From IMG/VR virus record IMGVR_UViG_3300028888_000051, positions 163,384-227,383 of that record: 64,000 nucleotides of DNA; one strand, given 5' to 3'. Within the stretch, counting starts at the first letter, position 1. Each line of letters begins with the position of its first letter. This DNA comes from a virus (Duplodnaviria > Heunggongvirae > Uroviricota > Caudoviricetes). This document shows, one piece after another, positions 2,411 to 43,663 of the stretch. The position numbers were made by a program, and so were the translations under genes. Under the pieces are notes generated by a model that saw only the letters and a list, made by a program, of their open reading frames with translations, made no database searches and was not told where the DNA came from.

Positions 2411-2437
2411 ATTAAAATCTCCTTTTTAATTTCATCA

Positions 2438-2730: not shown

Positions 2731-2740
2731 GGAGAAAATT

Positions 2741-3298
2741 ATGCAAATTTATGGTAATCCTAATTTATCTGATAAATTTTTTGTTTATTTAGAAGATAAT
2801 AGTATTAATTATGTAAGAGATTTTGAAACAGCTAAGGGTTATATTCAAAATCCAAATTATAAAAAATGGTTTGGAAAAACTTTATATTGTACAAATGAAG
2901 ATATAGTAAAAGCTTATGATGGTAAATTGTACTTAAAAAGCAAAGTTCCAGAAAATCCAAATGAAATAAAAATATATGATAATAAATCTTTTTTTATTAA
3001 TAATTGTAAAAAATATATTGAAAATACATTAAATGATTTGAGTATTGAATATGGTTATGTATCTTTTTATCAATTAATATCTTGGAAAGATTCAAAAATA
3101 TTAAAAAACAAACAATTAGCTGAAAAAATGTTAAATTATCGTGATAAATTATATAATTTCTATTCAAAAATATACAATAAACATAAAAAACAACTAGAAA
3201 ATACATCAGAATTATTAGATTTATCAAATATTTACACAGAATTTTTAGAAAATATTCCAAAATTTAAAAAAGTTAAAGAAAATGAAACAAACAATTAG
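2741..3298 (+). CDS. hypothetical protein (185 aa)
   Basis: ORF with strong AAAGGAGA RBS; overlaps the next gene by 17 nt. Confidence 0.55.
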   Translation: MQIYGNPNLSDKFFVYLEDNSINYVRDFETAKGYIQNPNYKKWFGKTLYCTNEDIVKAYDGKLYLKSKVPENPNEIKIYDNKSFFINNCKKYIENTLNDLSIEYGYVSFYQLISWKDSKILKNKQLAEKMLNYRDKLYNFYSKIYNKHKKQLENTSELLDLSNIYTEFLENIPKFKKVKENETNN

Positions 3299-4184
3299 AT
3301 TATATATAATACCTACTTATAAAAATCCTTATGTAGATGAATATTATCTATTTGATCAAAATAATAAAAATACACTAGATGTAGTATGGTTAGATAATGC
3401 TTTAATTGAATTAAAAAATAATTATAATATTTTACAAACAGAAATTTGTGGGGGAGAAATAACAGTATTATCTGATTTTTATTTTAATATTTTGTTTCAA
3501 TTAATAAAAATGAATTGTAATAAAATTATTGTATCTACAAATTTTATAGATTTTAATAAATCTATAATAAATCTTTGTGATATAATTAATGTAAAATATA
3601 ATTTTAATGGTTATAGTAAATATAAAACTATTGTTTATAACAATATAAAGGCAGCAATAGCTGAAAATAAAATTATTAATTTAAAATCACTAGATATATC
3701 TTGTAAAAACAATCATAAATTAATTATTGAAGACTTAAATAGATTAAAAATAAAATCTTGGGAAATTATTCCATATCATCAATCTATTTATTCAAAAGCT
3801 ATTCCATTAAATTATACTGAATATGAAGAATTAATAAGAAAATATTTATTTTCAGCAAAAGATATGAAGTTTGCTTTTCAAAATAAACTTCAATTAGATG
3901 AAATCTTACCAATAGATAACTATAATATTAAAAATATTTATATTACACCGAATAATAAATTTGCCATAACAGAATTTAACAAAAACAATAAATTTAAATT
4001 CGTTGAATATGATAATTTATCTAATTTACAGAAAAAAATAGAAGAAATGGAAAATTTACGTGATAATTTTTGTTATAATTGTGATTCTAAATTACGATGT
4101 CTAGCAAATAGATTAATAAATTTAAATTATACTGGTAAAAGTTGTAGTGGTTTTAAAGATTTAATAAAATATTATAACAAATAA
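3282..4184 (+). CDS. radical-SAM-like paralogue lacking the Cys triad (possible pseudo-enzyme)
   Basis: GGE motif (EICGGEIT) and the following STNF segment sit at the same distance from the N-terminus as in the four rSAM paralogues at 21.7-25.5 kb. CxxxCxxC is replaced by YKNPYVDE. Cys-rich C-terminus CYNCDSKLRC..SC. Confidence 0.35.
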   Translation: MKQTIRLYIIPTYKNPYVDEYYLFDQNNKNTLDVVWLDNALIELKNNYNILQTEICGGEITVLSDFYFNILFQLIKMNCNKIIVSTNFIDFNKSIINLCDIINVKYNFNGYSKYKTIVYNNIKAAIAENKIINLKSLDISCKNNHKLIIEDLNRLKIKSWEIIPYHQSIYSKAIPLNYTEYEELIRKYLFSAKDMKFAFQNKLQLDEILPIDNYNIKNIYITPNNKFAITEFNKNNKFKFVEYDNLSNLQKKIEEMENLRDNFCYNCDSKLRCLANRLINLNYTGKSCSGFKDLIKYYNK

Positions 4185-18672: not shown

Positions 18673-19386
18673 ATGACAAAAGAAGAATTTTTACGTCTTT
18701 TAAGTGAATCTGAAGTTAAAAATGCTGAAGATACGCTTTCTAATATTGAAACAAAAGAAGTTAAAGATGTTGAGCCTGCTGAAGGTATTAAAGGTTTAGA
18801 TTCTGAATTACCTACACAGAAAGATATCGAAAAAGAAGTAGCAAAAGATGAGGGTCCGGTTGTTCCAGCTGATAAAGATGGTGTTTCTAAAAACGGTGGT
18901 GAATGTGACTGTTTAGAAGCTGGTAAAATTGAAGCAGAACGCAAAAAAGAAGATAATAGCATGAAAGATGTTATTAACGTTTCTAGTCGTAAAGTTGAAG
19001 AAAATAGTGAAGTAAGTAATGAATTGTTAGCTCAACTGAAAGAAGCTGCTGCTCGTGAAGAAGCTATGAAAAATCAAATTACTGAAATGAAAAAACTTTG
19101 TGAAGAAGCTTTATTAGCTCAAGAAGCAGACTTAGTAAAGACTCACGCAAAAGAAATGAAAAAAGTATTTGAAGCAGTAATTGCTGAAGGCGAAAAATTT
19201 GAAAAAACTTTAACTGAATCTTCTGCTAAAAATGAAAAATTATATAAGAAAGCTCAAAAGATGTATGAAAGCTCTGCAAAATTAAATAAAATTTTGTTAG
19301 AAGCAGTAAAGAAATCTCAACCTGAACAAAAAATGGTTCGTTATCAATCTGCTACTGCAAGAGCTATGGCTTCTTTGCGTAAGTAA
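18673..19386 (+). CDS. prohead scaffold-like protein (gp22-like, 237 aa)
   Basis: Highly charged Glu/Lys/Ala-rich predicted coiled coil directly after the prohead protease gene. Confidence 0.55.
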   Translation: MTKEEFLRLLSESEVKNAEDTLSNIETKEVKDVEPAEGIKGLDSELPTQKDIEKEVAKDEGPVVPADKDGVSKNGGECDCLEAGKIEAERKKEDNSMKDVINVSSRKVEENSEVSNELLAQLKEAAAREEAMKNQITEMKKLCEEALLAQEADLVKTHAKEMKKVFEAVIAEGEKFEKTLTESSAKNEKLYKKAQKMYESSAKLNKILLEAVKKSQPEQKMVRYQSATARAMASLRK

Positions 19387-20336: not shown

Positions 20337-20813
20337 ATGGCGAATAGATTTATACCAGATGATTATGATCATAATTTAGAAAACGAACTATTTGATGAAG
20401 AATGGTACACTAAAGTTTCTAATGCTATAAATTATACTTTTGACATATTAGAAAATAATAATAAAAGAATTGTTATCAATAAAGAAACTATTGCAAAAGC
20501 TATTATTGATTATAATATAGAAAAAAAACTCAGTGAAAATATTGATAATTTACCAATTCCTACTTTATTAGATTGGTCTAAAGCAAATAGTGTACAAATA
20601 TTTGATGAATTTGCTTCTATAGTATGTCTTTGTAATAAAAATGATAAATTTAAAAGACATGTTGTTAAAATAATATGTAATAATAATAAATCAGCTATCG
20701 AACAATTTAAATTTTGGGAAAAAGTTAATAATGAAGAAAAAAATAATACAATAATTTTAGATAAAATTCAAAAAAATAATACAATAATTTGTATTATCAA
20801 AAGAAGGACTTAA
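20337..20813 (+). CDS. hypothetical protein (158 aa)
   Basis: ORF downstream of the bipartite element. Confidence 0.5.
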   Translation: MANRFIPDDYDHNLENELFDEEWYTKVSNAINYTFDILENNNKRIVINKETIAKAIIDYNIEKKLSENIDNLPIPTLLDWSKANSVQIFDEFASIVCLCNKNDKFKRHVVKIICNNNKSAIEQFKFWEKVNNEEKNNTIILDKIQKNNTIICIIKRRT

Positions 20814-20818: not shown

Positions 20819-21715
20819 ATGTCAAATGAATTAGTATTAAATTCAGAATGGACGCCTTTTTTAATAGAAAACAGAGCTTCTATTACATTTGATAAATTTT
20901 TAGATTTAATTAAACAATTAGATAACAATAGTTCACCAAATTTATGGACAAAATGGAAAAATTATGCTAATCAAGTAGTTATAGAAACACCAAATTACTA
21001 TTTTAAGTTATATGAAGATGATTATTTATGTGGTTCATTTTGGTCATTAATTCGCTCTACTTTAGGAGAGATATATACAAAATATTTTAATATTTTGTGG
21101 GATGTTAATATTATAAAGCAAAATAGTAAAATATATACACTCGAAAGACGTCAAAAATTAAATGTATGTATACCGAATTCAATTTTATATACTGATTTAC
21201 TTCTTAATTGGTCAAATACACTTAAAAAACTAGAAAATGAACTTTTATTATCAGAAATATGTCAACAACTTAAACCATATATTCCAGAATTAGCAGAACT
21301 TAAGTTGATACGTAATTGTATAAATAAATATGCAGATTATGCTATTACTGAAGATAATAATATTGTACTTTTAGATGATTCCGATTGGTTTATAGCTATG
21401 GTTGATAAAAACGGTAAATGGTTAAATTCAAAATTTAAAGGTTATAATATAATTTCTAGTTTAGGAGAAACAATTTTTGCTCCAGAGGGTTATTTTGATA
21501 AAGGAAATATAACTAAACATGAAGAATTTACAAATAAATGGCAAATTTATATGGAAAATATTAAAACTACAGAAATAGAAGGAATTTTATTTGATCAACG
21601 TGAACAAATGCTCAAAGATAATATATCTTTGATATTTAATCAAAAACTTTTGCCTAATCAAAATATAAAATCTTTTGATTCAGTAGGTGATTTACTTAAA
21701 ATTGGTTTTGAATAA
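20819..21715 (+). CDS. hypothetical protein (298 aa from the internal ATG)
   Basis: Track ORF starts at 20789 inside the upstream gene. ATG at 20819 (MSNELVL) follows the upstream stop and is the more likely start. The 3' end overlaps the convergent rSAM gene by 20 nt. Confidence 0.5.
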   Translation: MSNELVLNSEWTPFLIENRASITFDKFLDLIKQLDNNSSPNLWTKWKNYANQVVIETPNYYFKLYEDDYLCGSFWSLIRSTLGEIYTKYFNILWDVNIIKQNSKIYTLERRQKLNVCIPNSILYTDLLLNWSNTLKKLENELLLSEICQQLKPYIPELAELKLIRNCINKYADYAITEDNNIVLLDDSDWFIAMVDKNGKWLNSKFKGYNIISSLGETIFAPEGYFDKGNITKHEEFTNKWQIYMENIKTTEIEGILFDQREQMLKDNISLIFNQKLLPNQNIKSFDSVGDLLKIGFE

Positions 21716-22742
21716 ATTCTCTATCACAGATAACACATTCATCAGAATCTATATAGGCGCAATAATTTAGTTGATGTCCACATTTAGCTGTAAGAAATTC
21801 TAAGCAATTACCTTCTTTTTCATTTAATTCATTTCGTGTATGTTTATTTCTATGATTTAATTGCATACGATGATTATCATCTGATTCATTGAAATTTCTA
21901 TACAAATCATCTGCACGATAAATTATATTAAAAAGTTTATCATATAAACCTGGGCAATCTTCTTTAAATTTAATTAAAAATTTTAAAAAATCTTCTCTTT
22001 TTGGAAAAAAACCCGGTAATCTTTTTTCCATTAATTGTTTAGCTTCCATGTATTGTTCAATTTTTGATAAGTTTTCATGAATAGGTTTAATTCCACCTGG
22101 AGAAGGTTGTTTAAAAAACATAGAAGTATGATATTTATTCATAAAATCATTAAAAGAAAATTCACCATTCAGATATTTGGTAATTATATCTTGAGTTAAA
22201 ATGGTACAAGTGTTAAAATTTAATGTTGGATATTTTTCATGTAAATTTAACATGTTATTTGACCAATTTTCTTGCATTTTTGGTAAATGAAAACGACCGA
22301 TCGTATCATAAGATGTAACAAGCCATACTTGATTTATTAATTCTGGTTTTCCGGCTTGAATATACATTTTTTTCATAATATCCAAAGAAGTATATAAATC
22401 TTTTTGTGAACCTATTGTAAGGGTACACATAATCCATACTTCACGTATTTTACCTGAAATTTGTAATTCTGCAGTTTTTTGCATAAGATTAAAAAATTTA
22501 TTTTTGACTTCATCTACATCAAGTTGACCTTGAAAAAATTCTCCACCTATATAAGATACTGTGTTATATGGAATCATTTTTTTGTTATCAGATAAAAAAT
22601 TATAAGCATCATCAAGTGCCTTAATTTTTAATTCTGTTGGTGTAAAGCTATTACTGTTTGCATTATAACAAAATACACATTTTTGATTACATTGATGCCA
22701 TAATTCAAACTGTAAACTCTTTTTTTCATTTATATCCATCAT
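21696..22742 (-). CDS. radical SAM enzyme, paralogue D (348 aa)
   Basis: CNQKCVFC (CxxxCxxC) at residues 18-25; YIGGEFF; C-terminal CGHQLNYCAYIDSDECVICD. Confidence 0.8.
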   Translation of the reverse strand: MMDINEKKSLQFELWHQCNQKCVFCYNANSNSFTPTELKIKALDDAYNFLSDNKKMIPYNTVSYIGGEFFQGQLDVDEVKNKFFNLMQKTAELQISGKIREVWIMCTLTIGSQKDLYTSLDIMKKMYIQAGKPELINQVWLVTSYDTIGRFHLPKMQENWSNNMLNLHEKYPTLNFNTCTILTQDIITKYLNGEFSFNDFMNKYHTSMFFKQPSPGGIKPIHENLSKIEQYMEAKQLMEKRLPGFFPKREDFLKFLIKFKEDCPGLYDKLFNIIYRADDLYRNFNESDDNHRMQLNHRNKHTRNELNEKEGNCLEFLTAKCGHQLNYCAYIDSDECVICDREFIQNQF

Positions 22743-23659
22743 TAGTCTCCTATCATTTCTAAAAAGTTTTCAACATCACTTCTTGGATGTATGTTAGAAT
22801 CAAAATATCCATAATTGTTTTCATCACAATAGGTATTCTTTTTATTTTCTGAATTATGTCTATCATTCATAATATAAAAATCTTTATCGTCAAATGAAGA
22901 ATAACATGTATCACTATGATTTACAATATTTATAAAATTTTCTAAATCATCTTTTGTAAACATTTTTGTTTCATAAGTATATTGTAAAAATTTAAGAAAG
23001 GTTTCTCTTCTCGGAAAAAAATTAGATAAAATTTTATTTTCGAAATCTTCAACATTTTTACATAGATGACCATAACCAGTCATTGGTAGCATATAATTTG
23101 TAAAGCAATTATAATTTTCATTGAATTCTTTTAAATTTAAACGATTAGACAACACTGCTTCTAACATAGCTTGAGTAACAATCATTTCAACATGAAGTTT
23201 TAAATTTGGATAATTTTTATGTAAAAATAACATATTATTTTGCCAATTTTTTAAAGTGTTATTATTAAATCTACCAATTATATCCCAAGAAGTACAAATC
23301 ATAAATTGATTCTGAAAGTTCTTTATATATTCACAAAATTCTAATAATTCAGAATTATCATCAAACATTAAAGCTGTTGTAATAAGACAGCGTTTAGCTA
23401 TTCCCATTTTAATTTTATTTATAAAACAGTCTATAATTTTATAAAAGTATTTTTTAACTTCAGCTGTATCTATTTCACCATTAAAAAATTCTCCACCGAT
23501 TATACCAAAATCAGAATATTTATCAGCTTCTTTTGTATTAAGAATATCTAAAACTTTTTTCATACATTTAACTTTATCTCTATGTCTAGGTATACCGTTA
23601 TTATAGCAAAATTTACATCCAAATGAACATTGTTTCCATAATTCAAATTGTAAAAACAT
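22742..23659 (-). CDS. radical SAM enzyme, paralogue C (305 aa), C-terminal Cys module degenerate
   Basis: CSFGCKFC; IIGGEFF; C-terminus YCDENNYGYFDSN lacks the EC..CD part. Confidence 0.8.
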   Translation of the reverse strand: MFLQFELWKQCSFGCKFCYNNGIPRHRDKVKCMKKVLDILNTKEADKYSDFGIIGGEFFNGEIDTAEVKKYFYKIIDCFINKIKMGIAKRCLITTALMFDDNSELLEFCEYIKNFQNQFMICTSWDIIGRFNNNTLKNWQNNMLFLHKNYPNLKLHVEMIVTQAMLEAVLSNRLNLKEFNENYNCFTNYMLPMTGYGHLCKNVEDFENKILSNFFPRRETFLKFLQYTYETKMFTKDDLENFINIVNHSDTCYSSFDDKDFYIMNDRHNSENKKNTYCDENNYGYFDSNIHPRSDVENFLEMIGD

Positions 23660-23660
23660 A

Positions 23661-24584
23661 TTACTCTCCTAGTATAAGTAAATCACAAAGCATACATTCA
23701 TCTGAATCTGCATAACATCTATATAATTCACTATGACCACATTCGGTAATATTTTCTTTACCATCAGATAAAATTGGTTGTTGAGTTATATCATTATTTT
23801 TATTACGTAAACCAGTATATTTATAAATCGCCGAAGCGTTAGTTGAACTATACATATTAGTATATATCTGTGGAAAGTTTTCTTTCAAATATATACAAAA
23901 ATTAAGAAAATCTTCACGTTTGAAGAAAAAGTCATTTAATTTAAAACCAGAATGTATTGGATGAGGATATAAAAAACAAAAATTACATCCTTTTAGTTCT
24001 TCTTCTAAAAAATATTTAAAATCAAATTTGTTAGACATAATATCATCAATAAGATATTGAGTTAAAATCATTTGAACTCCAACTGCATAATTATATCTAT
24101 CTCTAAATTTTTTGATATTTTCTAAAGCTAATAATCTTTTTTCTTCTGAAGGATATCTATATTTTATATCATAAGAAAAATTTACATCTATAAATCGCAT
24201 GTCTCCTGTTTTTTCTTTGATTCTGTCTATAACACGAAATAAAAATGCTGGATCATACATTCCATTAGTTACAGTTGAATAGCGACATCTATAAGAAGTA
24301 CTAACTAATAATATTTTATTTATGATGTCATCTATTAAAAGCATAAATTCATCTTGTATATCTTTATCGGTTATAAAATACAATTCACCACCTAAAAGAG
24401 ATATACCATCAGCAAATTTATCTTTCCAATCAATATAATCCAAATTTTTTCTTATTTTATGTATTTCTTCAATAAGTCTAGATTTATCCCAAACTTCACG
24501 ATTTTTTCGTAAACAGAATTTACAGTTATTGTTACAATTTGGCCAAAGTGAATATTGATTCATATAATGTTTAATTTCTAACAT
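23661..24584 (-). CDS. radical SAM enzyme, paralogue B (307 aa)
   Basis: CNNNCKFC; LLGGELY; C-terminal CGHSELYRCYADSDECMLCD. Confidence 0.8.
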   Translation of the reverse strand: MLEIKHYMNQYSLWPNCNNNCKFCLRKNREVWDKSRLIEEIHKIRKNLDYIDWKDKFADGISLLGGELYFITDKDIQDEFMLLIDDIINKILLVSTSYRCRYSTVTNGMYDPAFLFRVIDRIKEKTGDMRFIDVNFSYDIKYRYPSEEKRLLALENIKKFRDRYNYAVGVQMILTQYLIDDIMSNKFDFKYFLEEELKGCNFCFLYPHPIHSGFKLNDFFFKREDFLNFCIYLKENFPQIYTNMYSSTNASAIYKYTGLRNKNNDITQQPILSDGKENITECGHSELYRCYADSDECMLCDLLILGE

Positions 24585-25451
24585 TTACATTTTCTCCATT
24601 ATTTCTTTTAGCACTTTACAATCACAAACAAAACATTCATTTGAATCAGAATAACATTTTTTAAAATTTTCTGAATGACCACATTTACTTTTATTTGATG
24701 AGATATCAACTAGTTTTCCATTTTCAGATTTTTGTAAAATAATATTTTGATTTAAAAGAAAATTATTACAATATTCTGTACCATAACCTGGAAGTTGTTC
24801 ATTAAGTTTTAGAATAGTTTTAAAAACAGTTTCTCTTGTTGGAGCTTTTATGTCTTTTCCAAATTTTATATAGGGTATTGTATTTACTTTAACGTTATAG
24901 TTATTTTCATACTCAGCTATGTTAAATTTTTCAGATAATACATCATTACAAAAACTTCTGGTTAAAATAATATTGACATATATAAGTAACTCAGGAAATA
25001 AATTTCTAATTTCAGTGAGATTAAAATAAAATTGTTTCATAGAAAAAGAATTAGAAAATCTTCCATCTCCATCACCAGAAGTAGTAAAATGTATTCTATT
25101 TTCTAATTTATAATCTTTTATCATATTTAATATTGGTAAAAGAAGTTCATGAATATCATATAAAATATTTGTATTAATATAACATAATTCAATTTCATTT
25201 TTTAACATTTTTTCACAAGTTAATTTGAATAATTTAAATAATTGTGAATTTATTATTGTATTTTTTTCTGCAAATATTTCACCACCAACGAATAGTATAT
25301 GTGTATCAGTTAAGTCTTTTACTGCATTATATATTAATTTTATCGATTCAAGTTGTTCTTCATGAGTTTGTTGTTTTTCTCTTTTTTGCCAGCAAAATTT
25401 ACAATTATTTGGACAATTATTCCAAAGAATGAATTCATGTATAGGTAACAT
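24585..25451 (-). CDS. radical SAM enzyme, paralogue A (288 aa)
   Basis: CPNNCKFC; FVGGEIF; C-terminal CGHSENFKKCYSDSNECFVCDC; first gene of the four-gene operon. Confidence 0.8.
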   Translation of the reverse strand: MLPIHEFILWNNCPNNCKFCWQKREKQQTHEEQLESIKLIYNAVKDLTDTHILFVGGEIFAEKNTIINSQLFKLFKLTCEKMLKNEIELCYINTNILYDIHELLLPILNMIKDYKLENRIHFTTSGDGDGRFSNSFSMKQFYFNLTEIRNLFPELLIYVNIILTRSFCNDVLSEKFNIAEYENNYNVKVNTIPYIKFGKDIKAPTRETVFKTILKLNEQLPGYGTEYCNNFLLNQNIILQKSENGKLVDISSNKSKCGHSENFKKCYSDSNECFVCDCKVLKEIMEKM

Positions 25452-25474
25452 TTTAACTCCTCTTTAATTTATAT

Positions 25475-25500
25475 TTTAGAACTGAAATGAGTTCTATATA
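25475..25500. promoter_or_regulatory. divergent pair of GTTCTA boxes (TTTTAGAAC ... GAGTTCTATATA)
   Basis: The minus-strand copy faces the rSAM operon (start 25451). The plus-strand copy lies about 30 nt before ATG 25526. Confidence 0.45.
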
Positions 25501-25525
25501 TCATATAAAAAATAAAGGAGAAGTT

Positions 25526-26029
25526 ATGGAAAATATTAAACAATTAACTAAAGATGAAAAAATAGAAAAATTACGTGCTTATATGAAAGGTGAAATTTTA
25601 GATAATGATTTAGCCTTTAATGTATTTTTATTATTGTGTCCACCAAAAAATTTTGGTCAAGATTTTTTTGAACATGAAAAAGTAATGTATTCATCTATTA
25701 TTGAAATATGCTCTATAACAGGTTTATTAAAACAAGATATGATTGATTTTTGTAGTCAATTATTAGGTATATATGAAGCTTGTTTTAGATATTGTGTACC
25801 AATTAAAACAGAAAAACAAGAAACTAATGTACCAGAACAATATTTAAAAATTTTTGCATTATTAGATTTTCAAAGAATAGCCAAATTGTATGAAAAATAT
25901 GAGGCAGCTAATATAAATTGTAAGTATGGAGATGCTTATAAAGTAATTTATCCGTTTATGAGACAGTTTAATTTCTATGAAGATTTAATGTGTGAAAACG
26001 GATTTGAATTTGGAGATAATTGTGACTAA
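25526..26029 (+). CDS. hypothetical protein (167 aa from the revised start)
   Basis: Track start 25487 lies inside the promoter-like box. ATG 25526 (MENIKQL) has an AAAGGAG RBS at the right distance. Confidence 0.55.
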   Translation: MENIKQLTKDEKIEKLRAYMKGEILDNDLAFNVFLLLCPPKNFGQDFFEHEKVMYSSIIEICSITGLLKQDMIDFCSQLLGIYEACFRYCVPIKTEKQETNVPEQYLKIFALLDFQRIAKLYEKYEAANINCKYGDAYKVIYPFMRQFNFYEDLMCENGFEFGDNCD

Positions 26030-26816
26030 TAGTACAACAAATATTGATTCTAATGAAAAAATAACTTATGCTGTATTAACAACAAAATTTTTAGAATGGT
26101 TAAAAGCAAGTTGTAAAAATATAGGTACAGCATATGCATCAGATGTACCAGATGCAATGAAAAGTACAACATATCATAAAGATTATACCGGTACTATATC
26201 TGTTCCAGCTGATTGTAAGCCAAAATCAGCAAGTAGAAACACAAATTATAAAATGAGTATGAATATAAATAATACTTCATTACCAAATAGTTTTCCATTA
26301 GTTACTATCTCTGATATTGAAACAGATTTCAATAATTTTATGCAAGCTAGAGGTATATATACTAAATCAGATACTCCAGTTATAGCAACTGGTTTATTGG
26401 CTTTTTGGAATAATGTTGCATCATTTTGTTCAGCACGTATATATAATGTAGCTGGATTAAATGCTACAAAGGCATTACGTATGTATAAAAAATTAGGAAA
26501 AACAGTAGCTGAAATACAAGCTGCAGATAGTGGAAATAATCCATATTATAAAAAAGTTTCTACTATGACTCAAGGGTTTGTTCCAAATTCTTCACAAGGT
26601 AATTGTTTTAATAAAAATGATGTTACAAAATTATTAGATGAATTAGAAACAATTATTGGAGAGACAAATAGATTATATACTGTCACGTATGTTTTTTCAA
26701 ATAGTTTATGGTCATCATCTTGCTGTTCAAGTTCTTGTTCTTCTAGTTCATCATCTAGCTCAAGTAGTAGTTCATCATCTAGTTCAATGTTTATAGGATA
26801 TATGAAATTATATTAA
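26022..26816 (+). CDS. hypothetical protein with Ser/Cys-rich C-terminal tail; paralogue of 27969..28670
   Basis: GTG at 26022 follows GGAGA and aligns its N-terminus with the paralogue. Shared blocks IETDFNNF and GLLAFWNNV. Tail WSSSCCSSSCS(16)MFIGYMKLY. Confidence 0.6.
   Translation: MTNSTTNIDSNEKITYAVLTTKFLEWLKASCKNIGTAYASDVPDAMKSTTYHKDYTGTISVPADCKPKSASRNTNYKMSMNINNTSLPNSFPLVTISDIETDFNNFMQARGIYTKSDTPVIATGLLAFWNNVASFCSARIYNVAGLNATKALRMYKKLGKTVAEIQAADSGNNPYYKKVSTMTQGFVPNSSQGNCFNKNDVTKLLDELETIIGETNRLYTVTYVFSNSLWSSSCCSSSCSSSSSSSSSSSSSSSSMFIGYMKLY
26744..26781 (+). repeat. two 15-nt direct repeats (TAGTTCATCATCTAG) within the poly-Ser coding tract
   Basis: Copies at about 26744-26758 and 26767-26781, read directly. 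Confidence 0.6.
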
Positions 26817-26879
26817 AAATATTCTTTAATTGCTATATATAAATTAAGTTCAATAATATAAATCATTGGAGTTTATATT

Positions 26880-27920
26880 ATGAAAGACAAAAATTTAATA
26901 ATTAAAGAATGGTTTGATATAGATGGTTTTTCAGTTAATGAATTACAAATATTAAAAGCTCATCGTCCAGAAGTAATAAAAAATTATAATATCGATTTAG
27001 AAAAATCAATGATAGATAGATTTTCTAAATTATTACCTTATAGTCATATAAATTATGGCACACATGAAATTTCTTTTTTTGAACATGCTACAGATATAAT
27101 AAATTGTTTATTTTCACAAAAAGTTGATGATAATACTTTAGTTATTGTATCTAATAATGAGCATGAAAATGTAATAAAAAATTATACACAATGCAAGAAT
27201 ATTTATGTTTTAGATTTTGATACTGAAATAATACCATGTAAATTAGATAATTTATATGCAGAATGCAGTAAATATAGAAAAGTATTTGTATATATAATAG
27301 GCACACAAGTTTCAAATGGAATAATTACACCACAATTATTTTTTGAAACATTAAAAACTTGGCTAGTATCAAATCAAAAAGAGCATGTAATGATAATTGA
27401 TGATGTGCATGGCTTATTTATAGTACCTAGAGATTATACTATATTTGATTACATCATTTATACATGTCATGCTTTAATTACACAATTTGATATGGGAATT
27501 TTAATTGCAAAGAGACCTTCTGAATTAGTAGGATATCATTATTTAAATTGGGGAATGGCTTATTTAGATGCTATAGAAATAATATTTAATCATTTAATAA
27601 AATTTTATAATTTCAAAAATATAATGTGCCAATATTTTGAAGAAGAAATTGCTGAAAAAAAGTTGACATTAAATTCTAATACAGCTCCACATATTTTTGC
27701 ACCAGAAATTCATAGACTTAGATTAAATAAAAATGATTTTGATGAGATATTTTATGAATTAAAAAAGTATGATATGCGTATTGAGGGAGGATTTGATGAA
27801 AATGGTAAATGTAATTCTAGATTATATCTTCGAATAAGAGAAGGGCAATACTTTACACATCCAGAAAGATTAATTCCAGGTTTAGAAATAGCTAAGTCAA
27901 TTTTTAGTACAATAGAATAA
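26880..27920 (+). CDS. class-V aminotransferase / cysteine-desulfurase-like fold protein, canonical PLP lysine apparently absent
   Basis: Ordered by-eye matches to NifS/IscS-type blocks: HRPEV, SNNEHENV, GTQVSNGIITP, IIDDVHG, YTCHA...GILIAKR (HA where HK is expected). Confidence 0.35.
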   Translation: MKDKNLIIKEWFDIDGFSVNELQILKAHRPEVIKNYNIDLEKSMIDRFSKLLPYSHINYGTHEISFFEHATDIINCLFSQKVDDNTLVIVSNNEHENVIKNYTQCKNIYVLDFDTEIIPCKLDNLYAECSKYRKVFVYIIGTQVSNGIITPQLFFETLKTWLVSNQKEHVMIIDDVHGLFIVPRDYTIFDYIIYTCHALITQFDMGILIAKRPSELVGYHYLNWGMAYLDAIEIIFNHLIKFYNFKNIMCQYFEEEIAEKKLTLNSNTAPHIFAPEIHRLRLNKNDFDEIFYELKKYDMRIEGGFDENGKCNSRLYLRIREGQYFTHPERLIPGLEIAKSIFSTIE

Positions 27921-27933
27921 AGTTCTAAATTTA
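27921..27933 (+). promoter_or_regulatory. AGTTCTAAATTTA box upstream of 27969..28670
   Basis: Starts right after the upstream stop codon, about 40 nt before the ATG. Confidence 0.4.
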
Positions 27934-27968
27934 TATTAATATAAACAAATAATTTTAATGGTAATATT

Positions 27969-28670
27969 ATGGCAATTGATCCTACAAATACACTTACATA
28001 TAATGAATTAAAAACTGATACTTTAAATTGGATAAAAACTATTCCACAAAATGTTGGTTCATATAAAAGTACTGTACATGCATCTTTAAGAGATCCAAAT
28101 TGGAGTAAAACATTAACTCAATATAATTATAATTGGGAATATAGATATACATATAATAAACAAGGAAATCCAACAAAAGCTGATAGATATCGTACACATA
28201 TTGATTTGATTGCCAAAATAAATACAGCTACAATTATTCCAGTAGTAACAGCAACACAAATTGAAACAGATTTTAATAATTTTTTAACTACAGCTAATAT
28301 TAATTCACGTTTAAATGGAATAGTTACAACATCTGGACTTTTAAATTTTTGGGATAATGTAGTATGTTTTTTATATAAACATTTGGTTAGTGTTTCTAGT
28401 AATGATGCACCAAATGGTGTTTTAATGTATTGGTCAACTTCAACATATAATTATAAATATGTTACTAAATTATCAGATAACTATACTACAGTACCAAGTG
28501 AAACAAAAATTACAGCACAAGATATGTTAGATATGTTAACCACATTAGAAGAAACTTATAATTTTGCACATCGAACACATATTGTTACTTATTCGATAAC
28601 AAAAACGACAACTGTTACAAAATTAGCTACTGGTGTTGCACCTGGTACTTATGAATCACCTGAATCATAA
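27969..28670 (+). CDS. hypothetical protein with Thr-rich C-terminal tail; paralogue of 26022..26816
   Basis: Shares IETDFNNF, GLLNFWDNV and the ..L..LE(E)T.....H/Y.VTY.. blocks; ends TKTTTVTKLATGVAPGTYESPES. Confidence 0.6.
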   Translation: MAIDPTNTLTYNELKTDTLNWIKTIPQNVGSYKSTVHASLRDPNWSKTLTQYNYNWEYRYTYNKQGNPTKADRYRTHIDLIAKINTATIIPVVTATQIETDFNNFLTTANINSRLNGIVTTSGLLNFWDNVVCFLYKHLVSVSSNDAPNGVLMYWSTSTYNYKYVTKLSDNYTTVPSETKITAQDMLDMLTTLEETYNFAHRTHIVTYSITKTTTVTKLATGVAPGTYESPES

Positions 28671-33184: not shown

Positions 33185-33847
33185 ATGCCAGTATATTTCG
33201 GAAACAGTAATAAAATAAAAGAAATGTATTATGGAAGGACTAAGATAAAAGAAGCTTATTATGGTTCTACGTTAGTTTATAAGAGTACACATTATAAACC
33301 AAATGAGGTAATCTATGAATCATCAACAGCTGGAAGCACTACACTTAATTTATTAGATAATGGTAAATATGAAGTCATTTGTATTGCAGGCGGAGGTGGT
33401 GGTAAGCAATTTAAATATGGTTCTGATATTACTGATCCAATAATTAATTACGGTGGTGGTTCAGGTTCTGGATTTGATTGTATTTTACAATTAACAAGTG
33501 GAAGTTATACAGTGACTGTAGGTGCAGCAGGTGTTAGAAATACGGATCACTCAACAACTTCATCTGGTTCTGGTGGCAATTCACGATTTGGAACATCTTA
33601 TGCTTATGGTGGAGGTGGTGGTAAATATAATGCAGTTGGACCAAAAGGAGAGGCTCCAAGTATAACTTACACAATAATATCTACTACTTTTAATAAAGCC
33701 GGTAATAACGGAACTAGAGATGTTGGTTCGACTGCCGCAGGTGGTGCTTCTGTTTATGATAATACAGCAACCGGCTATGGTGCAGGTGGTAGAAGCAATC
33801 AAAATGGCCATGCAGGTTATGTAAAAGTTATTTATAAAGGAAGTTAA
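33185..33847 (+). CDS. glycine-rich fibre-associated protein (220 aa)
   Basis: GGGGGK, GGGSGSG and GGGGGK runs ending in GHAGYVKVIYKG, a pattern seen in phage glycine-rich tail proteins. Confidence 0.55.
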   Translation: MPVYFGNSNKIKEMYYGRTKIKEAYYGSTLVYKSTHYKPNEVIYESSTAGSTTLNLLDNGKYEVICIAGGGGGKQFKYGSDITDPIINYGGGSGSGFDCILQLTSGSYTVTVGAAGVRNTDHSTTSSGSGGNSRFGTSYAYGGGGGKYNAVGPKGEAPSITYTIISTTFNKAGNNGTRDVGSTAAGGASVYDNTATGYGAGGRSNQNGHAGYVKVIYKGS

Positions 33848-36250: not shown

Positions 36251-37018
36251 TTATTTTACACTGTTTATAAATGGAATTGGAGCTGAGCCATAAATATTTA
36301 CTGGTAATTTTCCATCCCATTTTTGTACAGCTTCATAAGCAACTAAATTTTGATTTTTACTTAGGGCTTCAGAACGAATAGCCATTGACTTAGCCTCTGC
36401 TTCAGCAGCAAGAACTTTTTGTTTAGCTTCTTCTTGGACTTCAGCTGTTCTATTCCTTGCTTCTTCAGCCTTTTGTGTTGCTACAACTTTAGCTTCAATT
36501 GCTCTTTCAAAAGCATCTGTATATTCAATATTATTTAAAGAAACTGAACTTATTTTTATATAAAAAGCTGTCAAAGTTGTATTTAAATCTCTTTTAATTT
36601 CATCTGTAGCTTTTTCACGATTAGCAACAAGATTTGCAGCATCCCATTTACCAATCACATCTTTAACAACAGCCTCAGCATTAGGACGTAATACTTTTTC
36701 TTCATAATTTTTACCAATTTCACGATGTAAATTAATAATATTATCTAAATCAAGACGATAATTGAGAGTAATTTTCATATTAGCCGTTTGAATATCTTTT
36801 GTATAGGTCTCTATTTCCATTGTATATTTTTGAGTTTTACCTTCATATTCAATTACATTACCACCAAATGGCATATAAAAATATAAACCTTCTTCTAATG
36901 GCTTTTCTGAAGTAATTTCACCCCACATTGTCTTCAAACCACGATTACCTGTATCAATTTGCTCACCACATCCAGTTAATGAGCAAACAATAAATAAAAC
37001 AGTAAAAATTTTTTTCAT
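36251..37018 (-). CDS. SPFH/band-7 (prohibitin-like) lipoprotein
   Basis: Lipobox SLTGC after a signal peptide; SPFH core; Ala/Glu-rich coiled coil QKAEEARNRTAEVQEEAKQKVLAAEAEAK; WDGKLP ending typical of the prohibitin/HflKC class. Confidence 0.8.
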   Translation of the reverse strand: MKKIFTVLFIVCSLTGCGEQIDTGNRGLKTMWGEITSEKPLEEGLYFYMPFGGNVIEYEGKTQKYTMEIETYTKDIQTANMKITLNYRLDLDNIINLHREIGKNYEEKVLRPNAEAVVKDVIGKWDAANLVANREKATDEIKRDLNTTLTAFYIKISSVSLNNIEYTDAFERAIEAKVVATQKAEEARNRTAEVQEEAKQKVLAAEAEAKSMAIRSEALSKNQNLVAYEAVQKWDGKLPVNIYGSAPIPFINSVK

Positions 37019-37034
37019 TTGTATCCCCTTTAAT

Positions 37035-37229
37035 TTATTTATCTTTTTGTGAATAAAGTTTATTTATTATCTTTTTTCTACCATTACTAGTTAAAAATAA
37101 TATTGGTGAAAAAAGAATAATAAGTAATTTTGTTTTTGGTTTAAACATTCGATTAAATTGCATAATAATTATAAATGCCCATATTGTAATAAAATAAGCA
37201 CATAAAATACGTAAAATTAAAATACTCAT
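37035..37229 (-). CDS. small membrane protein (64 aa, two hydrophobic segments)
   Basis: Sits directly upstream of the SPFH gene in the same operon. Confidence 0.5.
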   Translation of the reverse strand: MSILILRILCAYFITIWAFIIIMQFNRMFKPKTKLLIILFSPILFLTSNGRKKIINKLYSQKDK

Positions 37230-37244
37230 TTATTATTTTCTCCT

Positions 37245-37871
37245 TTAAAATCCAGTAGCAACTAAAACTAAAGCATTTTCTTTAACTTCAACTGGTATTT
37301 CACCAATTGTATGATATTTAAGTGTATGTAATTCATAATAAGCATTAAATTTTCTTTCAGCAATTACATGATAACCGTTAATTGTTTCAAATGTTGCTTT
37401 ATAATATTTATCACAAAGATTAATAACTTTATCTAATAAAGCTTTACTTTTACTATCTATATCAAATAACCAATATCTACTCTTTTTATCAGAAGAAGTA
37501 TCTTTCATACAATTACTTGTTAATAATTTTGCATAATTTTTTGCTGAAAATTCAATTCTTTGATTACATAAAGCTGGATCTAATAATTTAGTTATATCAT
37601 CACGTAAAGTAACCATAGATTTAATATATGATTTTCTATCAGTACACATATAAAGTCTACATTTATTATCTTCTATTACTTTTTTCATTTCAGGTATGTA
37701 CCAATATAAATCTTTAATACTAGATATTACCCAAGTTTGTATGATTTTACTTTCTTTTTCTAAATAAATTTTTGGATCATCTTTTCTACGCTTTAAAGCA
37801 ATAAAAAAGTAATAAGAATGACCAATATTGTATTTCATTATGAAATCTAATTTATCAAAGTTATTAATCAT
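37245..37871 (-). CDS. hypothetical protein (208 aa) with DxD and G-Y-H motifs
   Basis: YWLFDIDSK ... TINGYHVIA is reminiscent of AEP primase-polymerase motifs I/II; unverified. Confidence 0.45.
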   Translation of the reverse strand: MINNFDKLDFIMKYNIGHSYYFFIALKRRKDDPKIYLEKESKIIQTWVISSIKDLYWYIPEMKKVIEDNKCRLYMCTDRKSYIKSMVTLRDDITKLLDPALCNQRIEFSAKNYAKLLTSNCMKDTSSDKKSRYWLFDIDSKSKALLDKVINLCDKYYKATFETINGYHVIAERKFNAYYELHTLKYHTIGEIPVEVKENALVLVATGF

Positions 37872-37882
37872 TAAAGGTCTCT

Positions 37883-38470
37883 TTATTGATGGTTTTTAAC
37901 TATTTCATCAGTAACACCATAATCAATTGCTTCTTCTGCTGACATCCAAAAATCACGTTCACAATCTTTTTTAACTTGATTAATATCTTTATTTGTAGCA
38001 TTAGCGATCATTTGCATTAACATATCTTGTAATCTGCTAACTTCTTCTAATGTAATTTTCATATCATGAACATTTGCTTGCATACCACTACTAACAGAAT
38101 GAAGCATATATCTAGCATGAGGCATTATTTTACGCATACCTTTTGTACCAGATAATGCAATCATAGCATCCATAGAGGCAACTTCACCTGATACAATAGT
38201 TGATACAGGACATGAAATCATATTCATAGTATCAATAATCTGTAAACCAGCTGTTACACTTCCACCTGGTCCACTAACAATCATTGTAATAGGTTTATCT
38301 TTATCTTCTGCTTCTAAATATAAAAGTTGAGCAACAACACTTTCGGCTAATTCATCATCAACTTTACCACAACATAAAATTAATCTATCACGAATTAATC
38401 TTGAAGTAATATCAACTTGACGTTCGTTACCATTAGAATCTTTATAAATAACTGATGGAATTCCTATCAT
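37883..38470 (-). CDS. clpP: ATP-dependent Clp protease proteolytic subunit
   Basis: GPGGSVTAGLQIIDTM, GEVASMDAM (catalytic Ser context), MLHSVSSG (His) and WMSAEEAIDYGVTDEI are collinear with ClpP. Confidence 0.85.
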   Translation of the reverse strand: MIGIPSVIYKDSNGNERQVDITSRLIRDRLILCCGKVDDELAESVVAQLLYLEAEDKDKPITMIVSGPGGSVTAGLQIIDTMNMISCPVSTIVSGEVASMDAMIALSGTKGMRKIMPHARYMLHSVSSGMQANVHDMKITLEEVSRLQDMLMQMIANATNKDINQVKKDCERDFWMSAEEAIDYGVTDEIVKNHQ

Positions 38471-41027: not shown

Positions 41028-42377
41028 TTAAGCTATAATATTATCTGGTCCATTATTAATTGATAAATCATATTTTTGTTTATAAAAAGGACCTACTTTA
41101 TTTAGCATTTTTTTAACCGTAGAGTGAATACTTTCATTTTCTAAATCAATTATGCCTTCAGGAACCTCTTGCTTACCACGAAGTAAAATACGAGCAATAA
41201 GTTGACCTAATTCAAAGCACATAGATTCATCAAAACCCCGAGTTGTAATCGCTGGAGTACCAATTCTAATTGCAGAAGATTCAGATGGTTTAGTATCACC
41301 CGGCATCATGTTTTTATTACAAATAATATGATATGATGTTAATAAGTCTTCAGCCTGTTTACCATTTATACCAGAATTTCTAAGGTCTACTAATACCATA
41401 TGATTTTCTGAGCCATTACTAATGAATCCTATTTTATTTTCTTTATCGAAATCTCTTATACCATTGATAAGTGCTTGCATATTACAATATACTTGTTCTA
41501 TATAATCTTTAAATTCTGGTTTGAGAGCTTCAATAAAACATTGTGCTTTAGCAGCAACAAGTGCTTCATTTGGACCACCTTGAATTTTTGGAAAACACCC
41601 ACTGTTAATTTTACTACAAAGTTTTTGGTCATTCCAAAGAATTATACCACCACGAGGTCCTCTTAAAGTTTTGTGTGTTGTAGAAGTGATCACATCACAC
41701 CATTTAGTTGGATCATATTTATCTTTCCATAAATGAGCAGCAATAAATCCCATTACATGAGCTGAATCAGACATAAGATAACATTTTGTTTCTTCATCCC
41801 TACCAAGATTATATACATCTACCAATTTCCTTATATATTCATAATTAATTCGTTTAGAATAAGCTGAAGCTCCAACAACTAACATTCTTGGATGATATTG
41901 AAGTAATTTTTGTTTAATTTCTTCATAATTCAATTCACCATTTTCATCAAGACCATAATATACAGGATTATATATATGACCTGTTAATGAAGCTTTAGAG
42001 TAGTGTGTCAAATGTCCGCCATATTCTATGCCCATTCCAAGTACTGTATCACCTGGTTTTAAAAGACCTGCATATACAGCTTGATTAGCCTGAGAGCCAG
42101 AATGAGGTTGAACACAAGCAAAATTTACATTAAATAATTCTTTAGCTTTTTCTATAGCATAATTTTCTACTTCATTTATTACTTCACATCCAGCATAATG
42201 ACGTCCCTGTTTAGAAACTTCATTTGGAAATCCTTCTGCATACTTTACAGATAAATGACTTCCCAAAAGATCAAGAATATCTTGACTTGGATAGTTTTCT
42301 GAAGCTATTAATTCAATACCATCATTAAGACGATTTGTCTCTTTGCTTTCTAATTGTTGTAATTTTTGATCAATCAT
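41028..42377 (-). CDS. glyA: serine hydroxymethyltransferase
   Basis: LIASENY, YAEGFP, VQPHSGSQAN, GGHLTH and TTHKTLRGPRGG (PLP-Lys context) are all present in order. Confidence 0.95.
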   Translation of the reverse strand: MIDQKLQQLESKETNRLNDGIELIASENYPSQDILDLLGSHLSVKYAEGFPNEVSKQGRHYAGCEVINEVENYAIEKAKELFNVNFACVQPHSGSQANQAVYAGLLKPGDTVLGMGIEYGGHLTHYSKASLTGHIYNPVYYGLDENGELNYEEIKQKLLQYHPRMLVVGASAYSKRINYEYIRKLVDVYNLGRDEETKCYLMSDSAHVMGFIAAHLWKDKYDPTKWCDVITSTTHKTLRGPRGGIILWNDQKLCSKINSGCFPKIQGGPNEALVAAKAQCFIEALKPEFKDYIEQVYCNMQALINGIRDFDKENKIGFISNGSENHMVLVDLRNSGINGKQAEDLLTSYHIICNKNMMPGDTKPSESSAIRIGTPAITTRGFDESMCFELGQLIARILLRGKQEVPEGIIDLENESIHSTVKKMLNKVGPFYKQKYDLSINNGPDNIIA

Positions 42378-42943: not shown

Positions 42944-43663
42944 TCATAAAGCGAAAAATTCCCACTTCTTCTTTTTACAATACTCTAATGCACTATTATG
43001 TAAATTGCAAGAAGAACAATTGTTACATGGTTTTTTATCAACACAACCTGGAGATTGACAATATGAACAATATTTTAATATTTTATGCTCATGTAAATAC
43101 CACAAAATATATTTCTTTTCAACCCACTCAAATGGTAAATATAAACTAGCATTAGCTTTACTCATTGAGTTTATAGTTTCAAAAAGATTATTAAATTTAT
43201 CTATAAAGTGCCATATATCATCATTTTTTATATATCCACATGAGATTAAACGGTTATTACCCCTAATTAAATTCGATATCATACTTAAAAACAATTGTGG
43301 CTGACTAATACCTCCTCCATTACAATAATCATCACAATCACCATTTTCTTTAATTTCAAATGTAATGTGATTAACTAATATTTTTTGCTTTTTAAATATC
43401 TTAAGTAATTGTTTTTGAGCAATTATATCAGCAGGATAACTTCCGAATCGGTCATAATTTATAGAAACAAGATTGATAGTTTTATGGAACTTTTCCCACA
43501 AATATAATACTAAAGCTGTAGAATCACATCCACCACTCCATAAAACAAAAATGTCTGAAATATTTTCTGGTATTTTTATATAATTACTATACAAATCATT
43601 TACCCAATTAAAAAATTCTGAACCGATTATATCTTCTCGTATATCCATGACTTTCCTATTCAA
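42944..43663 (-). CDS. QueC-like PP-loop ATP pyrophosphatase (7-cyano-7-deazaguanine synthase family, divergent)
   Basis: SGGCDS PP-loop motif near the N-terminus. C-terminal Cys cluster CSYCQSPGC...CNNCSSCNLH sits where QueC has its zinc site. Length 239 aa. Confidence 0.5.
   Translation of the reverse strand: MNRKVMDIREDIIGSEFFNWVNDLYSNYIKIPENISDIFVLWSGGCDSTALVLYLWEKFHKTINLVSINYDRFGSYPADIIAQKQLLKIFKKQKILVNHITFEIKENGDCDDYCNGGGISQPQLFLSMISNLIRGNNRLISCGYIKNDDIWHFIDKFNNLFETINSMSKANASLYLPFEWVEKKYILWYLHEHKILKYCSYCQSPGCVDKKPCNNCSSCNLHNSALEYCKKKKWEFFAL

Follow-up and report, generated by a model that had tools for sequence, protein, structure and literature searches.

The window examined here, a 64,000-nucleotide stretch of a tailed-phage genome (positions 163,384 to 227,383 of IMG/VR virus record IMGVR_UViG_3300028888_000051), contains a compact gene cassette in which four tandem genes for radical S-adenosylmethionine (SAM) enzymes, rS1–rS4, stand back to back with an operon encoding a protein that ends in a tract of Ser and Cys residues, a paralogue of this protein without such a tract, and a protein with the fold of pyridoxal 5′-phosphate (PLP) enzymes that lacks the Schiff-base lysine. 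We judge it somewhat better than an even chance that this cassette is a protein-maturation system, resembling those for peptides that are synthesized ribosomally and modified post-translationally (RiPPs), which acts on the Ser/Cys tail of a probably virion-associated protein. Directly observed are the gene families and their motifs, the lysine-less PLP fold, the conservation of the tail, the co-occurrence of the genes, the duplication of whole cassettes, and the fusion of a radical SAM (rSAM) enzyme to another cassette protein. As far as sequence can tell, the cassette looks like an undescribed protein-tailoring system. It is widespread in gut metagenomes yet absent from 50,697 deposited GenBank phage records, in which no relative of the cassette families was detected (by tblastn, rS1 remained without a match at E ≤ 1e-3, as did rS4 and the PLP-like protein at E ≤ 1); within the literature covered, no description of it was found in work on gut jumbo phages and radical SAM or on polyserine rSAM targets.

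The Ser/Cys-tailed protein and the conserved cassette

The proposed substrate is encoded by 26022–26816 (+ strand), an open reading frame (ORF) for 264 aa that begins with GTG, was reproduced by ORF scan, and specifies a globular domain of ~230 residues followed by the tail. The tail comprises a 25-residue Ser/Cys tract, SSSCCSSSCS(16) (residues 231–255; 26712–26786, +), which would be the core, and the terminal motif MFIGYMKLY (26787–26813, +), which fits the family consensus and would be a docking or 'follower' element. An AlphaFold2 model of the protein has an ordered core and a disordered tail. Scans against Pfam, PHROGs, NCBIfam, and PADLOC gave no match for the tailed proteins, a family that nevertheless amounts to 36 clusters by word-indexed search and 439 cluster representatives by exhaustive profile search. 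The product of 27969–28670 (+) is a paralogue without the Ser/Cys tract (BLASTP 6e-18, 27% identity), as the first-pass annotation of this DNA had recognized, and corresponds to the 'short' partner of other lineages, each of which typically carries a tandem pair consisting of a tailed member of 200–270 aa and a tail-less or differently C-terminated member of ~180–190 aa.

Statistics over 89 unique tails reveal a tract that varies in length and composition between a domain and a conserved end. The Ser/Cys tract is 10–35 residues long (median 21), residues other than Ser and Cys totaling 8 in the whole set, and contains 0–8 Cys (median 3), enriched in its first fifth. The tail end follows the consensus Φ-F-I-[A/G/V]-Y-M-[K/N/D/R]-[L/I]-COOH, with F in 75, I in 82, Y in 73, and M in 61 of the 89 tails, and the third position occupied by Ala in 56 tails, by Gly in 20, and by Val in 12; the protein ends 0–3 residues past this motif. 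A minority of tails have [W/L]-T-I-[V/I]-H-Q-D-L-S-[L/M]-L in its place. Both serine codon boxes, TCN and AGY, occur in all 38 distinct tract DNAs, including that of the window, which indicates selection on the protein and rules out that the tract is a slipped trinucleotide repeat or another simple-repeat artefact. A tract of variable length and Cys pattern, a conserved terminal motif, and a position beside rSAM arrays in nearly all loci make up the combination expected of a RiPP precursor in the broad sense of the term.

The tail-less paralogue is fused in several phages to Gly-rich or β-rich distal domains, and the Thr-rich end of 27969–28670 (T-rich...GVAPG..SPE, or T-x-V-A-P...SPE) corresponds to the linker that leads to the Gly-rich domain in one fused relative (P0146). 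In our reading of the alignment, this 'Thr tail' is what remains of a linker, and we do not take it for a second core. The first-pass proposal of a phage-borne system tailoring Cys/Ser/Thr tails holds for the multi-rSAM tailoring module as such, whereas the Thr-rich end does not count as a conserved, substrate-like feature and the paralogue is tail-less elsewhere. The cassette is set among tail-fibre and baseplate genes, and this context, together with the distal-domain fusions, suggests that the tailed protein is located at the virion surface. The Gly-rich C-terminal domains of P0146, P0294, P0298, P0312, and P0321 end in G-Y-[VI]-K-I, like the G-Y-M-K-L of the Ser/Cys tails, which may mean, from the letters, that the Ser/Cys tail imitates the final strand of a Gly-rich domain or originated from it.

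About 50 related loci (L numbers hereafter), all from gut or rumen jumbo-phage contigs, were compared, and hidden Markov models (HMMs) of four families were run over all those retrieved. The order p180 (the first gene of the precursor operon, described below), Ser/Cys-tailed protein, (short paralogue), rSAM array is found in the window and its relative L001, in L005-7 (a ~290-kb human-gut phage), and in L008, L011, L013, L015, L016, and L017, with 30–60% identity between orthologues of cassettes sharing this gene order; L049 has it as well, with the different terminal motif WTIIHQDLSLL. In 22 of the 27 IMG/VR loci, and in every metagenome and metagenome-assembled genome (MAG) lineage with good coverage, the tailed family adjoins the rSAM array, so that the co-occurrence of tailed proteins and rSAM genes in related phages, which had been put forward as a check, is strongly borne out. 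Of the five exceptions, three (L024, L041, and L045) are cut by the contig end, L036 has p180 without a tailed gene, and L042 has a tail-less copy only. As a rule, the cassette genes run in one direction, their ends overlapping or almost touching, and the cassette survives inversions, for example between the window and L008; in the window, an inversion has left the genes divergent yet adjacent. Furthermore, whole cassettes consisting of the precursor pair, p180, and rSAM genes are duplicated within single genomes (L013, L023, L034, and L046).

The proposed modifying enzymes and their partners

The four rSAM genes, all on the minus strand, are rS1 (24585–25451, 288 aa), rS2 (23661–24584, 307 aa), rS3 (22742–23659, 305 aa), and rS4 (21696–22742, 348 aa), and the ORF scan reproduced their tandem arrangement with gaps of 0, +1, and −1 nt. 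Their mutual identity of 24–27% marks them as paralogues; the CxxxCxxC motif lies within residues 11–25 of all four (CSFGCKFC in rS3; CNQKCVFC at residues 18–25 in rS4), and both this motif and the SAM-binding GGE (GGEFF in rS3 and rS4) are invariant among the paralogues and in a 38-sequence alignment, in agreement with the first reading of these genes. Pfam PF04055 stays under its cutoff for all four, rS1 coming closest (28.2 versus 29.5 bits, with precomputed PF04055 matches for its homologues) and rS2 reaching E = 1e-4, under the gathering score; rS4 matches PHROG 1802, 'radical SAM domain-containing protein', with E = 4e-7. On the motifs and on profile matches to solved rSAM enzymes, rS1–rS4 are assigned to the radical SAM superfamily.

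The C-terminal four-Cys module noted previously, CGH-x-C-x-DS-x-C-x2-C, is indeed present in three of the four paralogues, including rS4 (CGH...C..C). In the wider alignment, however, only C, H, C, and C (CxH...CxxC) are kept, the second Cys being variable, and the absence of the module from rS3, described as local decay, is a trait of the whole rS3 orthogroup in every lineage examined and hence an old family feature. By its residue pattern, the CxH...CxxC element looks like a small metal site and not like a SPASM or twitch domain.

When all rSAM ORFs of the related loci were classified against the four of the window, they fell into four clean orthogroups that are present in all well-covered lineages, with identities to the window copy of 30–72% (rS1), 41–82% (rS2, the most conserved), 31–57% (rS3), and 36–65% (rS4, often duplicated). 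Lineage-specific duplications occur, the ~290-kb human-gut phage having three rS4 copies, and double rSAM fusions of 670 aa are found within the rS4 clusters; a 606-aa protein with two tandem rSAM domains is encoded in L049 (298.6-kb relative; 1–20678), with which the entries P0134 and P0140 are listed. The retention of four orthogroups over deep divergence, one of them always without CxH...CxxC, argues for four non-redundant roles of rS1–rS4, so far as comparison of sequences allows.

None of the characterized families in Pfam, PHROGs, NCBIfam, or PADLOC is matched at threshold by rS1–rS4, and the profile check against SPASM maturases, anaerobic sulfatase-maturating enzymes (anSMEs), viperin, QueE, and NrdG left all four below every family cutoff. 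NCBIfam gave sub-threshold matches only (PapB, viperin, NrdG, CofG, and QueE), mostly over the segment from the cluster motif to GGE, and PADLOC gave weak pVip matches only. Accordingly rejected as identities were anSME (no TIGR03942 match, and a tail without C/S-x-P/A-x-R), viperin/pVip (only the first ~60 residues matched, 16–25 bits versus a cutoff of 180), the NrdG/PflA activases (NrdG E 0.005–0.03, 13–16 bits versus cutoffs of 126–131), and QueE (matched by rS1 alone, E = 0.084, 12.5 bits versus a cutoff of 300). The best solved relative of a profile built from the four paralogues is the peptide epimerase YydG (E = 9e-6 over ~170 residues). Database names point in different directions, one homologue being called 'organic radical activating enzyme' at JGI and another being named in its source after the SCIFF maturase CteB.

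Scans of Pfam, PHROGs, NCBIfam, and PADLOC and a direct sequence comparison with PDB found no match for the protein encoded by 26880–27920 (+), 346 aa, whose family amounts to 115 metagenomic clusters. An AlphaFold2 model computed from a 44-sequence alignment (predicted local distance difference test score 94.7) has KBL, NifS, and 2-aminoethylphosphonate (AEP) transaminase as top PDB matches by Foldseek (E ~1e-13, TM 0.6–0.67), and the family profile weakly matches the NifS-like structures 4ixo and 1ecx in the correct register; the model thus firmly predicts PLP fold type I of the NifS/class-V-like kind. At position 198, where the PLP lysine is expected, the 44 sequences have Ala (31), Ser (8), Val (3), or Ile (2) and never Lys, so that the NifS-like blocks with HA for HK first noticed in the window protein characterize the entire alignment. 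Kept in the family are T71, H95 (PLP stacking), D174 (N1), H/Q177 (O3′), and T195 and H197, which flank the lysine site; residues of the stacking, hydrogen-bonding, and phosphate-binding classes are retained. In an hhalign comparison with single DegT and window serine hydroxymethyltransferase (SHMT) sequences, an insensitive test, the probability was 0.2, and the H-K of SHMT was aligned on the H-A of the family. No alignment column has Cys in ≥60% of the 44 sequences, and 36 of the 44 lack the region that contains C311 of the window protein. Lacking both the lysine and a conserved catalytic Cys, the protein is, on its alignment, very unlikely to be a cysteine desulfurase, and the earlier suggestion that it supports Fe–S loading is abandoned. 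It may act through non-covalent pyridoxamine 5′-phosphate (PMP) or PLP on a carbonyl substrate, or its role may be purely structural. Its gene lies inside the rSAM array in L005-7, in L013 (two copies), and in L049 (three copies).

Accessory enzymes are added to the cassette in a lineage-dependent manner. A true SPASM rSAM enzyme occurs in seven lineages, the copy of L023 and L028 passing TIGR04085 (29.4 bits versus a cutoff of 27); over its full length, it best matches the anaerobic sulfatase maturase (2e-14), with HxsB and PapB next. The clusters of lineages other than that of the window also recruit an enzyme of the MiaB/RimO family, NodU-like O-carbamoyltransferases are found in at least eight lineages, and L049 has an acetyltransferase in its cassette beside the three PLP-like paralogues, with NrdD and its activase nearby. 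Glycosyltransferases occur in two lineages from rumen and gut. In L020 (368–12292), genes for a GT2 glycosyltransferase, an NDP-sugar 4,6-dehydratase, a DegT aminotransferase, and two carbamoyltransferases are interspersed among the rSAM genes, start codons overlapping the preceding stops, and in L048 (1761–15632), a DegT protein, two GT2 enzymes, and a carbamoyltransferase are clustered with two Ser/Cys-tailed genes. In gene content, the cassette looks like a variable tailoring cluster around a constant precursor.

Two orphan proteins and one intergenic element complete the module. The first gene of the precursor operon encodes the helical orphan protein p180 (25526–26029, +), which likely starts at the ATG at 25526, in agreement with the start in a relative. 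Its family, ~170–250 aa, adjoins tailed genes in 23 of the 27 IMG/VR loci and in other lineages; there is no match in Pfam, PHROGs, or PDB (the last by sequence profile) and no invariant catalytic-looking residue in the family, and p180 is a candidate adaptor or chaperone. With this start, the divergent spacer between rS1 and p180 measures 74 nt, one less than first given, and the GTTCTA boxes reported in it form an inverted repeat, TAGAAC-N8-GTTCTA (25477–25496), that occurs only once in the window (0.05 expected). L001, a 72%-identical relative, has the same arms and differs at three of the eight N8 bases, and the element is, from its sequence, a candidate operator or promoter element. Convergent with rS4 lies the gene for p308 (20819–21715, +), an orphan protein of ~300 aa with K47, K63, E139, D173, and D187 invariant in its family. 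Neither p308 nor p180 found a match in Pfam, PHROGs, NCBIfam, or PADLOC, and the PDB profile search remained at chance level (best E values 0.87 for the tailed family and 1.7 for p308). Homologues of p308 stand inside the cassettes of L023, L034, L015, L032, and L049, and in L016, two proteins of 740 and 694 aa are fusions with p308 as the N-terminal half and an rS4-type rSAM enzyme as the partner; from these occurrences, p308 probably belongs to the module. A kinase-like look of p308 could not be confirmed and is a lead only. The adjoining p158 gene (20337–20813, +) has homologues flanking the cassette only in L001, L008-10, and L043.

Proposed maturation of the tail and alternative explanations

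In the maturation scheme that we propose, the substrate would be the protein of 26022–26816, whose ~230-residue globular domain would serve as a very large leader and probably also as a virion-attachment domain, whereas the 25-residue Ser/Cys tract would be the core and the terminal Φ-FI[AG]YMxΦ-COOH strand a handle for the enzymes or for the putative adaptor p180. Each of rS1–rS4 would cleave SAM reductively, and the 5′-deoxyadenosyl radical would take a hydrogen from Cα or Cβ of a Ser or Cys in the tract. Since Ser and Cys replace each other freely and certain tracts are devoid of Cys, the case for an obligatory Cys thioether is weaker, and the favored chemistry is one that would treat both residues alike: formation of a formylglycine-type carbonyl, as by anSMEs, or epimerization at Cα. 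AtsB and other rSAM enzymes of the anSME type oxidize either Ser or Cys to formylglycine, and such chemistry would explain the free interchange. The lysine-less PLP-fold protein, through non-covalent PMP or PLP, would then act on the carbonyl intermediate, leading from alcohol via carbonyl to amine; for such a carbonyl reaction of the PMP type, a lysine-less PLP-fold partner would be expected. The same tail would be decorated further by the carbamoyltransferases, glycosyltransferases, SPASM maturase, and RimO/MiaB-like enzyme that other lineages possess.

We infer the tail as substrate, every one of these chemical steps, and the association with the virion from several lines of evidence, namely the deep co-occurrence, the duplication of cassettes, the selection acting on the tail, the four orthogroups, the p308–rSAM fusion, and the recruitment of tailoring enzymes, all of which support such a maturation, as do the PLP-like gene inside the rSAM array, the YydG match, the CteB-like name, and the virion-surface context. 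Several points weigh against it. The action of the rSAM enzymes on the tail is deduced from gene context, and because all the loci come from related jumbo phages, their adjacency may in part be inherited synteny; the placement at the virion surface is likewise drawn from neighbors and fusions, and the N-terminal domain of the tailed protein has no fold match in PDB or BFVD. The window rSAM enzymes give no TIGR04085 match, having only CxH...CxxC or, in rS3, nothing in its place, and their cluster motif starts at residue 11–18, leaving no room for an N-terminal RiPP recognition element (RRE) of the PqqD-like type; RRE and SPASM/twitch domains are usual in peptide maturases. With the 38-sequence profile, the YydG match is gone and viperin-like matches take its place (E = 1e-4), confined to the N-terminal ~60 residues. 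No more than 13 of the 27 IMG/VR loci have a PLP-like gene within 10 kb, no protease and no exporter or transporter gene was recognized in the cassettes, and no tailed gene lies within the retrieved DNA of L014 and L020. The interleaving of rSAM and nucleotide-sugar genes in L020 would also fit a sugar substrate.

This last observation leads to the alternative that survives best, which we nevertheless hold to be rather unlikely: that the rSAM and PLP-fold proteins build an unusual sugar or other small-molecule donor and that the tail is a mere acceptor, O- or S-glycosylated or carbamoylated by separate transferases. Precedents for small donors are DesII/DesI, BtrN/BtrS, and the lysine-less PMP dehydratases ColD and E1, and the latter two, of fold type I like the present family, act on keto-sugars; in glycocins, both Ser and Cys are known glycosylation sites. 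The gene clusters of L020 and L048 described above speak in favor of such a pathway, and both have DegT and no PLP-like gene within the retrieved DNA. However, by similarity to those of L020, no glycosyltransferase or nucleotide-sugar enzyme was recognized in the other loci except L048, and none was recognized with Pfam or PHROGs among the ORFs of ≥200 aa in the 64-kb window, 18673–19386 and 33185–33847 excepted. Moreover, the recruitment of SPASM and RimO-like enzymes indicates peptide or protein substrates, and the PLP-like fold is nearer to NifS, AEP transaminase, and KBL than to DegT.

Less probable still is a chemistry of nucleotides or DNA, in which a modified nucleotide, hypermodified phage DNA, or viperin-like chain terminators would be the product of the rSAM array and the PLP-fold protein, with the tailed proteins as unrelated structural neighbors. 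An rSAM enzyme and a PLP enzyme are a known DNA-hypermodification pair (PMC8989533), the thymidine kinase gene tdk is adjacent in the window, which also encodes SHMT and a QueC-like fragment, and the weak best HMM matches of the deeper rSAM profile are viperin-like. The adjacency of tdk is, however, specific to the lineage of the window and L001, so that the functional link to tdk entertained in the first-pass annotation is dropped; no kinase for 5-hydroxymethyl-deoxyuridine (5-hmdU) and no aGPT-pyrophosphorylase was seen; the PLP enzymes of phage M6 keep the lysine, which the present family never has; and the viperin matches cover the generic CxxxCxxC-to-GGE segment, far under the cutoffs. 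The duplication of cassettes together with their precursor genes and the conserved tail would be left unexplained.

We attach very little probability to the small rSAM proteins being glycyl-radical activating enzymes that act on the F-I-G-Y-M motif, or makers or repairers of a cofactor or metallocluster for host or phage: the JGI name, weak matches to NrdG and to the PHROG 'anaerobic ribonucleotide reductase small subunit', and the I-G-Y of the window motif, which glycyl-radical sites resemble, speak in its favor, but Gly stands at the motif position in question in 20 of 89 tails, compared with 56 for Ala and 12 for Val, so that a glycyl radical cannot be its conserved feature and this idea is rejected, the NrdG matches (E 0.005–0.03) are far under the cutoffs, L049 has its own NrdD and activase elsewhere, and four conserved orthogroups would be unexpected for an activase. 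The remaining probability goes to inherited synteny without a functional link or to some other explanation.

Returning to the proposed maturation of the tail, a bolder form of it, which we put forward only as a long shot, is that the iterative rSAM set turns the 10–35-residue poly-Ser/Cys tail of a virion protein into a non-proteinogenic run, for example of formylglycine aminated to 2,3-diaminopropionate by the lysine-less PMP-type enzyme and then carbamoylated, glycosylated, or methylthiolated according to lineage, yielding a charged or cross-linked appendage. If true, this would be the first RiPP-like pathway in phage morphogenesis, with four new functional rSAM families and a chemically unique appendage of the particle. 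If the tail is the substrate, phages would apply radical chemistry to proteins of their own that are probably structural; a function could be given to four new rSAM orthogroups and to a lysine-less PLP-fold family; and enzymologists would gain a compact, readily testable system of one precursor and four to six enzymes, whose pure Ser/Cys core lends itself to mass spectrometry. The cassette could bear on the resistance of gut phage particles to their environment or on their adhesion to it.

Genomic setting and comparison with known systems

The window comes from a large tailed phage, an uncultured jumbo phage of the gut, having a G+C content of ~25% and encoding SbcCD, a prohead protease fusion, tail and baseplate proteins, terminase, a GH19 lysin, SHMT, ClpP, RecA, and thymidine kinase. 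Megablast of the region against the 50,697 GenBank phage records gave no match, and the closest SbcC match among them is only 28.6% identical. The rSAM profile found 585 protein clusters. Gut, rumen, and pig metagenomes are the only sources of rSAM homologues, whose contigs reach ~290 kb; human-gut phage genomes of ~290 kb account for >100 contigs with a single rSAM cluster. When 185,579 species genomes were scanned, the family appeared only on MAG contigs of mutually inconsistent taxonomy, several of them 245–283 kb long and labeled 'Bacilli' or 'uncultured bacterium', which we read as mis-binned phage contigs; no host could therefore be named.

Some other features of the window may be recorded here. 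The 1045-aa ORF 51207–54344 (−) combines a terminase large-subunit signal (aa 464–577) with HNH endonuclease signals (aa 265–312) by profile match, which could mean that an intein or homing endonuclease interrupts a terminase. The 239-aa ORF 42944–43663 (−) matches QueC in its C-terminal third only (36.8 bits) and lies near the full-length SHMT gene (41028–42377, −); a 7-deazaguanine or folate-linked pathway may have left its trace in the QueC-like fragment and SHMT. Positions 2001–4000, which span a divergent gene pair, have the lowest G+C content in the window (17.9% versus ~25%). The 185-aa product of 2741–3298 (+), 20 kb away from the module, is 34% identical to a ~175-aa protein encoded within the cassettes of L013 (4738–5265) and L023 (18314–18832). 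ClpP, an SPFH/Band-7 protein, a DUF7487 protein, and RecA are encoded in the window, where the ORFs 36251–38470 (−), 55218–57167 (+), and 59232–60326 (+) are also listed.

The cassette is worth comparing with other multi-rSAM and rSAM–PLP systems. The Campylobacter phages CP220 and CPt10 have 11 and 12 rSAM genes, respectively, partly in a module of five and of unknown role (PMC2853527), which bears out the mention of multi-copy rSAM genes in such phages in the first-pass annotation. They share with the cassette phages an anaerobic or microaerobic gut niche and the many rSAM genes, but no sequence relationship is detectable by tblastn. In phage M6, the rSAM isomerase gp53 and the PLP decarboxylase gp52 take part in thymidine hypermodification (PMC8989533), so that here too a phage rSAM gene stands beside the gene for a PLP-fold enzyme; however, the M6 PLP enzyme keeps its lysine, the M6 system has no precursor-like protein, and it requires the 5-hmdU kinase and aGPT-Pplase, neither of which is seen in the window.

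Among PLP-fold proteins, fold type I and the retained PLP-contact residues are common to the cassette family, NifS/IscS, ColD, and E1. ColD and E1 do without the Schiff-base lysine, as does the cassette family, in which, however, A, S, V, or I and not His replaces it; from NifS/IscS, the family differs in having no conserved catalytic Cys and no Pfam match. With respect to the epimerases YydG and PoyD, which act iteratively on a peptide backbone and of which one is enough in known systems, the likeness consists of YydG being the best PDB sequence match of the four-paralogue profile, lost with the deeper one, and TIGR04078 is unmatched by the window proteins. The anSMEs provide the best full-length match of the accessory SPASM rSAM enzyme, yet at 39–53 bits versus an equivalog cutoff of 349; furthermore, the cassette target is without the C/S-x-P/A-x-R motif, and the window rSAM enzymes are without the two auxiliary SPASM clusters.

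The closest kind of system is that of rSAM maturases paired with low-complexity targets, such as SCIFF/CteB, the PapB ranthipeptides, the CXXX-repeat peptides, and the His-Xaa-Ser system HxsABCD, in the last of which a full-size protein is matured by two rSAM enzymes with a small partner protein (PMC13128918). In these systems, as in the cassette, rSAM genes lie beside a gene with a short low-complexity Cys/Ser segment, and true SPASM maturases of this very kind have been recruited to the cassette in seven lineages. The window enzymes differ from them in having neither SPASM/twitch domains nor an RRE and in reaching no family threshold. In clear contrast to the one or two enzymes of those systems, four non-SPASM orthogroups are conserved in the cassette, which also includes a PLP-fold component without the lysine; its poly-Ser/Cys tract is C-terminal and is carried, together with a hydrophobic end motif, on an orphan domain of ~200 aa, and the whole is phage-encoded and stands beside tail genes.

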